Shown here: one piece after another, positions 16,230-20,380 of the stretch
Layout: the number at the start of each line of letters is the position of its first letter
How positions within the stretch are numbered: the first letter of the stretch is position 1
Origin: Pelagomonas calceolata
Lineage: Eukaryota
Direction of reading: 5' to 3'
NCBI GenBank assembly: GCA_918797485.1
Contig: CAKKNE010000001.1
Coordinates: forward strand, 248,001 to 312,000
DNA length: 64,000 nt
Position numbers and translations under genes: made by a program
The notes under the pieces: model-generated
Told to the model about the DNA's origin: nothing
The model's input: the letters and a program-made list of their open reading frames with translations, nothing else
The model's database searches: none

Positions 16230-17491
16230 TCAGGACTCCGGCAGCCCCCAGAGCTTGAGCTCGCCGTAATTCCCCCCAGACACGACGCGCAGCCCGTCCG
16301 GAGATATGGCAACACAATTGACCTACAACGAACATACATCATCACAAAAGCACAGCGGACGCCGCAACGCACAGAGTGCCCTTCCAGCGTCGCCAGGCAC
16401 TCGCCGGTCGCGATGTCCCACACCTTGAGCGTCGTGTCGCGCGACGCAGACACGACGCGCCGCCCGTCCGGAAACACGGCAACGCTCAAGACCTACGACG
16501 AAGCCAGATCAGCACAAAAGTACAGCGGACGCCGCGCAACGCACGGAACCCGAGTGCCCTTCCAGCGTCGCCACGCATCTGCCGGTCGTCACGTCCCACA
16601 CCTTGAGCGTCTTGTACGAACCAGACACGACGCGCCGCCCGTCCGGAAACACGGCAACGCTATAGACCTACGACGAAGCCAGATCATCACAAAAGTACAG
16701 CGGACGCCGCAACGCACGGCCATCGAGTGCCCTTCCAGCGTCGCCACGCATTTGCCGGTCTTGACGTCCCACACCTTGAGTGTGTCGTCGCGCGACGCAG
16801 ACACGACGCGCCGCCCGTCCGGAAACACCGCAACGCTCGAGACCTACGACGAAGACACATCATCACAAAGTACAGTGGACGCCGCAACGCACCCAACCCG
16901 AGTGGCCTTCCAGCGTCGCCACGCATCTGCCGGTCGTCACGTCCCAGAGCTTGAGCGTCTTGTCGCCCGACGCAGACACGACGCGCCGCCCGTCCGGGGA
17001 GATGGCAACGCTCGTGACCTACGACGAAGCCAGATCATCACAAAAGTACAGCGGACGCCGCGCGCCGCACGCCATACTTGCCCGAGTGCCCTTCCAGCGT
17101 CGCCACGCACTCGCCGGTCTCGACGTCCCAGACCTTGAGCGTGTTGTCGCGCGACCCAGACACGACGCGCCGCCCGTCCGGAAACACGGCGACGCCTTGG
17201 ACCTACGACGAAGCCAGATCATCACGAAAGTACAGTGGACGCCGCAACGCACCCAATCCGAGTGCCCTTCCAGCGTCGCCACGCATTTACCGGTCGCCAC
17301 GTCCCAGACTTTGATCTCTCCTTTATCTATGTACTCATCATCACTACTAGAATCCGTGCGACAAATTCTTACTTCGGCTCCTGAACAAGAAACGACGCGC
17401 CGCCCGTCCGGAAACACCGCAACGCCCCAGACCTACGACGAAGACACATCAGCACAAAAGCACAGTGGACGCCGCAACGCACGAAACGCAC
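16230..17491 (-). repeat. Tandem array of about 175-bp units (WD40 exon + ~50-nt intron)
   Basis: Introns gtgcgttgcggcgtcc...cttcgtcgtag at 16323-16372, 16493-16544, 16668-16717, 16844-16892, 17019-17070, 17203-17252 and 17433-17482/17491. Internal exons are 120, 123, 126, 126, 132 and 180 nt. Confidence 0.9.
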
Positions 17492-20380
17492 GCCATGCGA
17501 GTGCCCTCTCAGCGTCCGCAGCTCGACGAGCTTCGACAGGGGGTCGGAAAACGGCATAAACCGCAGGTCGCCGCGCGCCACCGTCGCGACCGCGCTCGCG
17601 TCCCAGATCGACTGCAAGACCTTCATCGGTTCGGCTTCCGATGGGGTCGTGGCGGCGTCCGCGTCGACGACCTCGGTCGCGCCCTTCTTTTCTGGCGAAG
17701 GTACGGCGACCGCCTCCTCCTCTACGGCTCTGACAAGCTCCTCGGCAACGCCCTCCTCTTCGGCGGCGATGCGCTCGCGCCAGGCGTCGAACTGGACGAG
17801 GCCGCGGTCCGGCTCCGCGTACGGTGGGAGAGTGCCGCCGCGGCGCATCGCCTCCTTGTCGGCCGGCATGGGCGCCTCCGCCGGTGCACCGGTATCCTCT
17901 GGTGATGCCTTCTCAACAGCGCCCTTGTCAGCGTCGACAGAGTCACGCACGGGCGCCGAAGCCTCCTCAACCACACCACCGACAACATCGTCGGCCGCCG
18001 TCTCCGCCCGGTTCCTGCGCTCCTTGGCATCATCAAACTTCTTATCATCCAGCTCGACGCGCCCCAGGAACTCGAGCCACCCGCCCGGCAACACTTCATT
18101 CACAACAGCAACCGCGAGCTGCGCGCGCGTCATCGCGCGGTACAAACGCGAGCGAGTCTCGAACACGCCCGCGCCGCGATCGATGACTTGGTCGAGCCCG
18201 ACACAAATAACAACGAGCCGTTCCAAACCGTCCATGTTATCCACGCTGTCGACAACAAGCCACGGTTTTGAGCCAGAGCTACGCTCCTCGTCACGAGGCA
18301 GCGCCGCGCTCGCCGTCGCCGCGTCGACGAGCTCGAACCCACCAAGTGCCAGCCCCAATGGCCCTCGAAGCTTCTCGACGAATACCTCGTCTGGACAGAC
18401 AACGGCGACGCGGTCGTCGAGATCGCTCAGGTCCGTAAGCTGCTTTTGCACAGCTGAAAGTGCTTCGACGACTTCCGGCGCGTAGTGCTCCGAGGTGTCC
18501 TGGCCGTCCGCTAGTTTAAAGATCCGGGCCACGAGCGGCGGCCCGATAGACGCCGCGTGCGTCTCTGTCTCCGCCTTGCGCCCAGCCTCGAGCTGAAACG
18601 CGGCGGCTCCTGCGACGATACGCTTCGTCGACCGGACGACCTCGGAGAGCGTCGCGACGGCGACTTTCTGCTCGTGCGGCAGATCCACGAGCGAGCGCGC
18701 GATCTGATCAGGTTTGTGCGTGGCCGTCGCCTGCGAGGCGTCCGCGAGCAACAATAGGCGCGTCTGAGCAGCGCTAATATGGGCGAGCTGCGCACGCAGC
18801 GCGGCGTCGTTCACGAGGTGGTGCGCCTCGTCGACGACCACTAGAGCATACTTCACGGCTTCTCCGACGGCGTCGAGCACGAGCCGTCTCCCTTCGACGC
18901 GCACGCGCCGCGGCCCGTCTTCGAAGGGCGCCACCAATACGTGCACGCGATCTACAACATGCTTTGCTGATTTTCGCGATGCCACGACCAGCCACTTGCA
19001 GACGAAGAGCGCCAACGCGACGTTCCGCGCCGCGAACAGCACGACCGCGCCAGCGTCGCCCCGAAGCTCCTCGAGCACGCGCTGGATCGCGAGGAACGTC
19101 TTGCCGCCGCCCGCAGGCGACAGTAGCACGGCGACATTTGCGGCTCGCAGTTCCTTGAGTTTCTCGCGCTGGTGCGGCGTCAATTTCCCGAACCGCATCA
19201 TGATCCGCGAGTAGCACTCGAGGAAGGCGGCGCGGTCGACGCTGATCTTGGTTCCGTCTGGCAAGCTCTCGTTAAGCGCATCCTCAAACGCCCTCGATTC
19301 CAAGACAACGTCGTCCCGCAGCTGGGCCATGGCGGCGACCTCGTCGAGACCGAGCCGCACGCGCACTTCGCCCCTTTCCCCGGAATACACGTTCGCGACG
19401 ACGCAGCCCGGCGGCAGCGCCCGCGCCAGCGCCGCCTCGAACACGGCGAGAGATCCGAACGCGTCGTCGATCGAGCGGCCACCTTCGATCGTGAGGCGCA
19501 GGACCTGCTCGCTCTCGAGCCCCGGGCCGTCGACGGCGCGTTGCAGCGCGTCCTTGTCTTCTTTGGCCTCGATGACGCGCTCGACTTCATAGATCTTGTG
19601 CGCCTTGGCCTTCACCTCGATAATACGCCTCAAATTCAACTGGAGCTCCCCAACAAAGCCTTCCAGCTCGACGTTCAGTTGCAGGTCGCGGTAGCCGTTT
19701 TCGAACGGGTGGCTGAAGCGGTCCTTGCAGCGCCGGATCGTGATCTCGCCCCGGCGGGAGGCGTCCCTCAGCAGCGAGATGGCGAAGCTCAGGTCGTCCA
19801 CGGAGTCGAAGATGCCGGTCGCGCGCTCGAGGTCGACGACGCGGGCCACGTCGCCGCCGTAGTCCTTCTCGGTTTTTTGTCTGATGCGGCTCTTGCTTTT
19901 TCGCGGCCCCCTTTTATACTCACCGCCCGCATCCTGAACGAACCGCCTGAGCGATTCGAGCAGGTCCTCCCCGTGAAAATAGGCCAGCGCTGCGAGCGCG
20001 TCGATGGATGCGCCCTCTGGCAAGTCGCAGCGCGGCGGCGGCGGCGTATCAGGGAAATCTTCTTCGAGCCGCCTCGTTTCCGCGAGGAAATCGTCGGCGC
20101 TCTGGCGCGCCGCGTCGCCGTCGGCGGCCTTGTAGCCTTCCCACGCGGACTCGTCGTGGCGAGTCTGGCGAGCTTAGTCGCGCGGTCCACGACGCCCTGC
20201 ACAGCGGTCTGCTCGCCGCGCTCGGGCACGAAGCGGCCGCTGCCAGTCTTCGGCACGACGCGCACGATCTCGCGGTTCACCGCGTCCCGCGGCGCTCTCC
20301 AGGTTGCCGTCGTAGTAGCTCAAGAGCTCCTTCAGCTCGCCGTCGAGGGAGAGGGCGTCGACGCTGGCGCCGGCGCCCAT
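16230..20380 (-). CDS. RelA/SpoT-like nucleotidyltransferase + SF1-like helicase + 7 exon-encoded WD40 repeats; probable N-myristoylation (MGAGAS)
   Basis: Synthetase motifs [44 protein letters not shown] and AHKIYE. Helicase motifs AGGGKT, VVVDEAH, VVRST, DGLER and LYRAMTRA. Seven phase-0 introns separate the WD40 exons; stop at 16230-16232. The 5' end 20160-20380 has compensating frameshifts. Confidence 0.8.

Follow-up and report, generated by a model that had tools for sequence, protein, structure and literature searches.

Lysis shapes blooms of open-ocean picoalgae, and to our knowledge how these cells recognise viruses and parasites is largely unknown. A gene of Pelagomonas calceolata raises the question of whether it codes for such a recognition system. 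It lies on the minus strand of a 64,000-nucleotide stretch (GenBank assembly GCA_918797485.1, contig CAKKNE010000001.1, positions 248,001 to 312,000; hereafter the window, in whose own coordinates all positions are given), extends from an ATG at 20380 to a TGA at 16230-16232 and encodes a spliced protein of 1,264 amino acids when assembly indels are discounted. A first-pass annotation had reassembled it as a single gene for a candidate immune receptor with a RelA/SpoT-like synthetase, a superfamily 1 (SF1) helicase and a WD40 sensor. We find the gene to be expressed and intact, and we infer that it probably encodes an NLR-like innate immune receptor whose effector is a synthetase of the Apk1/EAS type (EAS, exported alarmone synthetase).

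Seven introns, all GT-AG, 49-52 nt in length and in phase 0, separate exon 1 from seven WD40 exons of, in order, 180, 132, 126, 126, 123, 120 and 93 nt. Each exon holds one repeat and all seven match Pfam WD40 (E 1.9e-11 to 1.3e-4), in agreement with the seven repeats originally counted, and Tandem Repeats Finder reports 5.9 copies of a 175-nt unit made of an exon and an intron. The MGAGAS start and the synthetase and helicase motifs named in the first-pass annotation are likewise all present, in the order given there; we add to these a ferredoxin-like domain that lies between the synthetase and the helicase, and the encoding of a single repeat by each exon. For the transcript, two RNA runs of one sample (X21 and X22; about 6 in 100 of each) and the DNA runs X1 and X3 were placed on 16050-20650. 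The parts of the gene are as follows.

17483..20380, minus: exon 1, with N-terminus, synthetase, linker domain, helicase, acidic spacer and first propeller strand; about 965 residues without two assembly indels
20363..20380, minus: start and MGAGAS (ATG-GGC-GCC-GGC-GCC-AGC), a predicted N-myristoylation signal, from the sequence
20286: assembly error, 1 extra base, from RNA reads and the X1 and X3 DNA contigs
20155..20159: assembly error, 2 extra bases and 2 wrong letters, from RNA reads and the X1 and X3 DNA contigs; the frame of P0002 is open here
19562..20029, minus: predicted alarmone synthetase, RelA/SpoT SYNTH fold, Apk1/Tas1-EAS branch, from profile comparison
19903-19874, minus: synthetase 10-residue motif, from the sequence
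19834-19823, minus: synthetase DLER, from the sequence
19696-19679, minus: synthetase GYRDLQ, from the sequence
19648-19637, minus: synthetase ELQL, from the sequence
19600-19586, minus: synthetase HKIYE, from the sequence
19190..19510, minus: ferredoxin-like linker domain (beta-alpha-beta-beta-alpha-beta) with two kinked helices, from a predicted structure (pLDDT, predicted local distance difference test, 86.9)
18065..19183, minus: SF1 helicase core, two RecA-like lobes, Schlafen-like, with Q motif, Walker A and B and motifs III-VI, from Pfam SLFN-g3_helicase (E 1.4e-6) and a structure model
19114-19097, minus: helicase AGGGKT, from the sequence
18838-18821, minus: helicase VVDEAH, from the sequence
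18637-18626, minus: helicase VRST, from the sequence
18232-18221, minus: helicase DGLE, from the sequence
18142-18122, minus: helicase YRAMTRA, from the sequence
17627..17998, minus: acidic low-complexity spacer rich in Ala, Glu and Pro, 124 residues, variable in the family, from the sequence
17600..17614, minus: QSIWD motif, which in many family members precedes the C-terminal repeat domain, from the family alignment
17433..17482, minus: intron 1, 50 nt, phase 0, between helicase exon and WD40 exon 1, from 150 (X21) and 95 (X22) spliced reads
17253..17432, minus: WD40 exon 1, 60 residues, with an acidic loop insert, from Pfam
17071..17202, minus: WD40 exon 2, 44 residues, preceded by intron 17203-17252, from Pfam and spliced reads
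16893..17018, minus: WD40 exon 3, 42 residues, preceded by intron 17019-17070, from Pfam and spliced reads
16718..16843, minus: WD40 exon 4, 42 residues, preceded by intron 16844-16892, from Pfam and spliced reads
16545..16667, minus: WD40 exon 5, 41 residues, preceded by intron 16668-16717, from Pfam and spliced reads
16373..16492, minus: WD40 exon 6, 40 residues, preceded by intron 16493-16544, from Pfam and spliced reads
16230..16322, minus: WD40 exon 7, 30 residues and TGA stop, preceded by intron 16323-16372, from Pfam and spliced reads

Spliced reads cross every intron (X21/X22, from the last to the first: 127/75, 158/111, 160/145, 91/45, 158/117, 228/158 and 150/95), and at the joint between the helicase exon and WD40 exon 1 the shorter of their two matching parts reaches 75 letters. 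Most first mates map to the plus strand, which agrees with an mRNA made from the minus strand, and reads cover 30 of 30 bins; the continuity of the 3.8-kb mRNA is given by this depth together with the joints, no single read running from end to end. Exon-skipping joints are absent from the best 15 of 81 splice joints. The transcripts thus splice the WD40 exons to the helicase exon, which upholds the single gene proposed at first and rules out that these exons form a separate one. Both frame breaks near the 5' end disappear in the reads: 17 of 18 (X21) and 10 of 10 (X22) RNA reads lack the extra base at 20286, 16 of 16 (X21; two equivalent alignments, 7 and 9) and 6 of 6 (X22) lack the two extra bases at 20155-20159, and the DNA contigs of X1 and X3 have neither insertion. 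Because the RNA reads and both DNA runs lack them, the two frameshifts are assembly errors and the gene is intact, which rules out a pseudogene.

The main open frame (17372-20173, minus strand) and the public model P0001 (CAH0363824.1, P. calceolata) show 100% identity throughout the region searched. P0001 and P0002, another public model, run on through intron 1 and end before the WD40 exons, so that surveys of the P. calceolata genome based on its annotation would miss the architecture; Aureococcus models such as P0010 hold synthetase, helicase and WD40 in a single chain. P0002 (CAH0375628.1) lies on another contig of the same species and shows 0 mismatches against P0001 over 897 aligned columns with 3 gaps. 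Each of the two models has its own indel-driven errors, and the pair may be a recent duplication or an assembly double.

The WD40 repeats offer evidence for a recognition function. A search with the exon-intron border pattern yielded 21 metagenome loci, of which 2 show the helicase and 5 more the C-terminal motif; 17 of the loci and the window supplied 41 distinct canonical exons of 126 nt. Although their mean identity is 85% and most positions are fixed or nearly so, positions 2, 18, 41 and 42 each show 11-14 different amino acids, and 40 of the 41 exons have a unique combination of residues. Positions 42, 2, 18 and 20, with 14, 13, 14 and 6 amino acids, respectively, flank a conserved Val and Asp with the very spacing of codons 7, 9, 25 and 27 of the Podospora HNWD repeats, where selection is reported to act on two pairs of codons that surround conserved residues of the d-a loop and b-c turn (PMC1805685). 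Parsimony counts at these four positions give 130 non-synonymous against 8 synonymous changes (local P 3e-4), with a ratio of the non-synonymous rate (dN) to the global synonymous rate (dS) of 4.3, as against 0.55 for the other 38 codons; on a tree built without the variable codons the counts are 163 against 22 (P 0.043; dN/global dS 5.2, other codons 0.52). The four codons show 42% identity, compared with 92% for the exon when six variable codons are set aside and 86% across 39 introns. These counts indicate that the top face of the propeller is under diversifying selection and the remainder under purifying selection. Gene conversion and chimeric assembly can inflate numbers of substitutions, and we regard the confinement of the variation to structurally defined sites as the stronger argument.

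Exons also appear to be replaced as units. The metagenome locus L006 looks like an allele or close copy of this gene: it matches the window at 94% in exon 1, 100% in exon 2 and 90-100% in the adjoining introns, against 89% and 85% in exons 3 and 4, which differ from the window at variable sites. Comparison of these allele-like copies points clearly to exon replacement. At 17363, a coding position in WD40 exon 1, the RNA is split about 55:45 (122 of 213 and 89 of 169 plus-strand first mates), so that two alleles or copies are expressed; L006 has the alternative letter. Similar repeats abound in the organism, the summed depth of their DNA contigs reaching about 11-fold (X1) and 40-fold (X3) that of the helicase bins. 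In L011, L016, L019 and L020 one propeller ends and a second starts after the same short linker motif, so that some genes have two propellers, and in L019 intron-less repeats stand upstream of intron-bearing ones.

What might such a sensor control? A phmmer search with the N-terminal domain against 1.84 billion representatives recovered 2,213 relatives at E <= 0.001, and the 150 highest-ranking ones were considered further. A profile of the domain and 52 of these (53 rows), compared with PDB sequences, gave 11 matches at E <= 10, headed by Tas1 (PDB 6OX6; E 3.8e-19) and followed by YwaC (2.5e-7), SaSAS (8.3e-4) and other small alarmone synthetases (SAS) and long RelA/SpoT homologues (RSH) at 0.011-0.57, the long RSH at 0.16-0.57. 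Tas1 and this domain also have in common the pattern PxK-x3-R-x3-K-x3-DYxGD-x5-D-x2-R-x-T. Judged by its sequence, the N-terminal domain belongs among the alarmone synthetases, in the Apk1/Tas1-EAS branch, and is nearer to Apk1 than to canonical SAS or long RSH. The RelA/SpoT-like assignment made originally is thereby kept and narrowed: the domain falls in the Apk1/Tas1/EAS branch and probably outside the tRNA-modifying toxSAS/CapRel group, none of the 11 PDB matches being named CapRel or FaRel2 and PADLOC giving no synthetase match. As the enzyme belongs with Apk1/Tas1 and the exported alarmone synthetases, tRNA modification is a less likely output.

In the numbering of the query (19550-20056), all 53 rows have K53, K61, D75, R78 and E137 without exception, and nearly all have Q139, Y122, H153 and R160. 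The active-site residues named for Apk1 are R330, K353, N370, E382 and the following Gln (printed as Q382), with D121 in SaEAS (PMC12691689). Counted on the printed hidden Markov model (HMM) alignment, R78, E137 and Q139 align with R330, E382 and that Gln; the counterparts of R, E, Q and D are all there and hold in 52-53 of 53 rows, and the register at K353 is ambiguous in the HMM alignment. The catalytic-type residues are intact. Its acceptor cannot be read from the sequence because GYRD replaces the GYSG of Tas1, and the Apk1/EAS branch holds A-specific, G-specific and dual enzymes (PMC12691689). We lean, at somewhat less than even confidence, towards (p)ppGpp, hold (p)ppApp to be a serious possibility, and think both, or another acceptor, rather unlikely.

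Apk1, Apk2 and cytoplasmically expressed SaEAS and VpEAS are reported to inhibit growth, the enzymes tested from this branch being toxic in the cytoplasm, and the homologue search reported with them covered bacteria only (PMC12691689). If active, the present enzyme would be a eukaryotic use of this toxin branch; it differs from Apk1/Tas1, Apk2 and the exported synthetases SaEAS, VpEAS/RelV and AaEAS in having no export domain and no adjacent immunity gene that we could see, and in being embedded in a receptor-like chain. Among annotated phages the only match is to one phage (2 records; 37% identity, E 8e-14), in which the gene directly follows the portal gene and is followed by a small gene and one annotated as a (p)ppGpp hydrolase, an order that we take to be the layout known for MuF-Apk2 loci. 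The best match among plasmid records is a Photobacterium pair with signal-peptide-like ends that has the GYRD motif in common with this gene and appears RelV/VpEAS-like by its host, its N-terminus and cluster B of PMC12691689.

A Pfam scan of 49 longer relatives found MuF, eCIS core, Ntox1/3, ParB and zeta toxin partners and, in the eukaryote-like proteins among them, kinases (8), ankyrin, TPR, LIM and ARM. In a FastTree phylogeny of 169 domains the 25 rows of the helicase family described below form one group (SH-like support 98) within a larger one that also takes in the 8 kinase fusions, whereas the 12 phage or bacterial rows lie elsewhere; the tree is midpoint-rooted, with weak deep support and mostly without taxonomy for its rows. 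Beyond the helicase family, eukaryote-like Apk1/EAS-type synthetases (P0098, P0113, P0115, P0119, P0126, P0151, P0159, P0160 and kin; Florenciella parvula is one named source) are fused to kinase, ankyrin, TPR, LIM/villin or ARM, and we found no description of these fusions in the literature searched.

The protein begins with MGAGAS and not with a hydrophobic signal peptide. We take this to be an N-myristoylation signal by the general motif rule, and an MG start of this type is seen in 20 of 29 synthetase-bearing family proteins, some of the others being incomplete. No hydrolase domain was found by a Pfam scan of the gene. Within the synthetase, a six-base run (19872-19878) is one base longer in 17 of the 39 X22 reads (10 starts) and in 2 of the 36 from X21 (Fisher P 1.4e-4); the DNA contigs do not have the additional base. 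This insertion would break the frame at a conserved lysine, and may reflect either a loss-of-function variant on the increase in one of the cultures or slippage in the library.

Between effector and sensor lie two further domains. The helicase has the SF1-type motifs Walker A and B, III (GDxxQ), V (GLE) and VI (YxAxTRA), presuming the usual definitions and numbering; Pfam matches it to SLFN-g3_helicase (E 1.4e-6, the best and above the cut-off), PhoH, DEAD and UvrD_C, NCBIfam gives weak helicase matches only, and PADLOC gives weak matches to defence helicases (best E 5e-7). Its structure model shows two RecA-like lobes. Human SLFN11 is the best Foldseek match (E 1.1e-8, 16% identity), closely followed by others, and in the Atlas the helicase neighbours UvrD/SF1 clusters and one SLFN13 cluster. 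Pfam found neither NACHT nor NB-ARC in the gene. The layout of effector, NTPase and repeats that the first-pass annotation likened to NLRs is present in one chain, but with an SF1 helicase and not a STAND ATPase as its NTPase; the protein is not a member of the STAND/NLR family but is built like one.

AlphaFold, run on a 43-row alignment, models the 121-residue linker as a confident ferredoxin-like fold with two kinked helices. TRADD-N, which has an RRM/ferredoxin-like fold with the same two helices and is reported only from bacteria and animals (PMC8195603), ranks second in VIA-align against 48,161 chains (Z 5.8, root-mean-square deviation 4.0, 102 aligned), tied with transposase, SEA and other, unrelated ferredoxin folds. 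Foldseek gives no match at E 0.001, TRADD-N (1f3v; E 0.057, TM-score 0.52) having the highest query TM-score among the matches listed. The uS motif that defines TRADD-N in its beta2-beta3 turn is not conserved, no conserved GS being found at that turn in the family alignment A4. The linker thus appears TRADD-N-like on the model but is not assignable to it.

This linker-helicase module recurs across a larger family. Two homologue searches, each scoring only about 7,990 candidates, returned 74 and 98 proteins, and 135 distinct proteins (P0001 and its twin P0002 included) were scanned with profiles built here. The helicase is found in 127 of them, 113 of which also have the linker and 27 all three domains; the Walker A lysine is kept in 119 of the 127 helicases, and, of 100 proteins with enough space for a linker, 91 have it immediately before the helicase. 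Named sources include Pelagomonas, Aureococcus, Chrysophaeum, Picozoa, Baffinella, Hemiselmis, Symbiodinium, Cladocopium, Effrenium and Chromera. The pelagophyte genera have retained the catalytic residues. Pfam scans of 32 and 18 hand-chosen proteins revealed fusions to TIR (P0294, P0297, P0318), caspase (P0304, P0308), kinase (P0267, P0274, P0279), LRR, TPR, ankyrin, WD40, RCC1/F-box, FYVE and U-box, some of which may be gene-calling fusions on single contigs; P0318 combines synthetase, TIR, helicase and LRR. The synthetase of P0022 is 97% identical to the one in this gene, with ARM repeats in place of helicase and WD40, and such swaps must therefore be recent. The wider family and the domain swaps that the first-pass annotation proposed to look for are thus found, and a single-copy housekeeping gene is ruled out by the many family members and hypervariable repeats. 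The receptor-like reading itself gains from selection at HNWD-equivalent sites and from the TIR and caspase partners. Scans of IMG/VR with alignment A1 (130 pattern matches) and of GTDB genomes for linker and helicase in a single protein (94) left 0 confirmed in either, both being scans that find close relatives only.

Some members of the family depart further from this plan. P0022, P0035 and P0044 (clusters of 21, 5 and 15 members) join a near-identical synthetase and linker to importin-alpha-like ARM repeats without the helicase and could be integrated decoys for viral nuclear-import signals. Matches to importin-alpha and beta-catenin derive from three ARM-fused rows in alignment A1 and do not belong to the present gene. 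P0020, an MMETSP transcript, has one synthetase before and another after its linker-helicase module, and lacks a repeat sensor.

Several known systems resemble parts of this architecture. The Podospora HNWD proteins (HET-E/HET-D) run from effector through NTPase to near-identical WD40 repeats in which the same four positions diversify (PMC1805685), and RelA_SpoT-NACHT-WD40 proteins, with RelA_SpoT as an N-terminal effector, are listed among fungal NLRs (PMC4986451). The fungal proteins qualify the initial remark that this architecture was not known to have been characterised: a RelA_SpoT effector on a WD40 receptor already exists in fungi, whereas the form with an SF1 helicase and ferredoxin-like linker in place of NACHT, and with one repeat per exon, was not found described in the literature searched. 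Diversification of the same four repeat positions in fungi and alga around different NTPase switches suggests convergence. Brown algal ROCO-LRR and NB-ARC-TPR candidate receptors are likewise stramenopile and share one repeat per exon, exon shuffling and diversifying selection (PMC3341825, PMC11378527), but the present gene has WD40 where those have LRR or TPR, a helicase where they have ROC-COR or NB-ARC, an enzymatic, toxin-type effector in the same chain, and a unicellular host. One repeat per exon, phase 0 in 7 of 7 introns and exon replacement between L006 and the window, as in the Ectocarpus type, are found here. Schlafen proteins (SLFN11/13/14) have the same order of toxic enzyme, linker and SF1 helicase; the similarity is remote (15-16% identity), Pfam matched neither an AlbA-type nuclease (AlbA_2) nor the SLFN GTPase-like domain in this gene, whose N-terminal domain is the predicted synthetase, and the C-terminal repeat sensor is a further difference. 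We found no description of a synthetase-helicase-WD40 protein or of the helicase family in the literature, mostly open-access papers without supplements. A term search in the main text of a pelagophyte pangenome preprint gave no WD40, immunity or this family (10.1101/2024.10.30.620910), and the FunRel and MixRel subfamilies are named without discussion of such fusions in the part available of 10.1101/575399.

In light of these observations, we propose that the receptor at rest would be held at the membrane by an N-terminal myristoyl group, its predicted lipid anchor, and autoinhibited by propeller and linker. After the anchor would come a toxin-type enzyme, a linker resembling an adaptor, an ATPase and a propeller of seven blades. 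A ligand, possibly of viral or parasite origin, would bind the hypervariable WD40 propeller and switch the SF1 helicase module in an ATP-dependent manner; the freed synthetase would then consume ATP to pyrophosphorylate GDP/GTP or ADP/ATP and so drain ATP and GTP, with growth arrest or death of the infected cell as the probable outcome. More widely, and with distinctly less confidence, we raise the possibility of a fourth kind of intracellular receptor in marine protists, parallel to STAND NLRs, ROCO and RIG-I-like receptors. Its switch would be a ferredoxin/TRADD-N-like domain with a Schlafen-like SF1 helicase, and its sensors (WD40, LRR, TPR, ankyrin, RCC1) and effectors (TIR, caspase, kinase, alarmone synthetase) would be interchangeable; in pelagophytes a bacterial Apk1-type toxin would have been domesticated and a repertoire built by recombining one-blade exons. 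Independently of this wider idea, the family provides specific candidate receptors, in which four residues per blade would form a specificity code that can be read and the enzyme output can be tested.

A number of points weigh against this proposal. The Pfam RelA_SpoT match is below the cut-off (E 0.24 for the long frame, 0.012 for the domain alone), the position of Apk1 N370 is a Gln here and variable in the family, and structure searches with the 706-residue model listed only helicases, so that the synthetase assignment is sequence-based. The repeats are pooled from 17 metagenome loci and the window, and some may belong to other genes; exons of other lengths, among them 5 of the 7 in the window, were dropped. 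Recombination violates the tree assumption, and the local P weakens from 3e-4 to 0.043 when the variable codons are left out of the tree. The link to Schlafen is modest, the Foldseek E of 1e-8 having SF2 helicases close by, the sequence match standing at E 0.069 and SLFN being absent from the VIA-align top 50. Transcription in ordinary cultures fits a resting receptor and equally a non-immune role.

How far do these points favour other explanations? In SLFN11 the helicase domain gates the nuclease, and the helicase here might similarly sense foreign nucleic acid and activate the synthetase, leaving the propeller only to target or guard. The Schlafen matches (SLFN11 in Foldseek, SLFN-g3_helicase in Pfam, the SLFN13 cluster in the Atlas) and the conserved Walker A lysine are compatible with this; selection on the WD40 top face, however, points to the propeller as the specificity element, and P0022, P0035 and P0044 keep synthetase and linker with ARM repeats in the place of helicase and WD40, so that we consider it unlikely. 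The correspondence of the variable positions with those of the HNWD allorecognition genes (PMC1805685), and whole-exon differences between allele-like copies, would also suit discrimination of mating partners or of other algal cells, as by Podospora het-e/het-d. The family, by contrast, spans unrelated protists and includes TIR and caspase partners. P. calceolata is moreover a free-living unicell that is not known to undergo vegetative fusion, and an allorecognition function is very improbable.

An equally faint prospect is a non-immune signalling protein that uses its alarmone as a messenger of stress or nutrients. Transcription in culture, the kinase, LIM, ankyrin or TPR fusions of eukaryote-like relatives and a GYRD motif shared with the RelV/VpEAS-like Photobacterium pair, whose characterised kin make (p)ppGpp (PMC12691689), would fit it, but a housekeeping role does not predict hypervariable binding surfaces and exon turnover, and the protein has an MGAGAS start in place of a signal peptide and no hydrolase domain that Pfam could find. 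We give least credence to a functionally idle chimera, in which an exon-intron cassette spreads and recombines by itself and the variation is a by-product of gene conversion. Such a cassette could account for the many look-alike repeats at up to about 11-fold (X1) and 40-fold (X3) depth and for the frameshifting base in 17 of 39 X22 reads of the synthetase; against it, the variation is confined to a few codons (42% identity, as opposed to 92% elsewhere in the exon and 86% in introns), the remaining codons are under purifying selection and catalytic residues persist across pelagophyte genera. An NLR-like immune receptor thus remains the reading that we prefer.

The neighbourhood of the gene adds some minor observations. 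A TRM61/GCD14 tRNA m1A58 methyltransferase gene (14960-16165, plus strand; Pfam E 6.5e-72) lies tail to tail with it, about 65 nt from its stop, and reads from both strands overlap between the two near 16120-16200. Frames are also broken in a membrane-protein-like gene (20866-21640, plus strand) and a UBA/MYND gene (21555-22959, minus strand), which suggests further uncorrected assembly indels in this stretch. An open reading frame at 13070-14641 (minus strand) matches DUF7918 (Pfam E 7e-8), with an apparent frame break near its 3' end.

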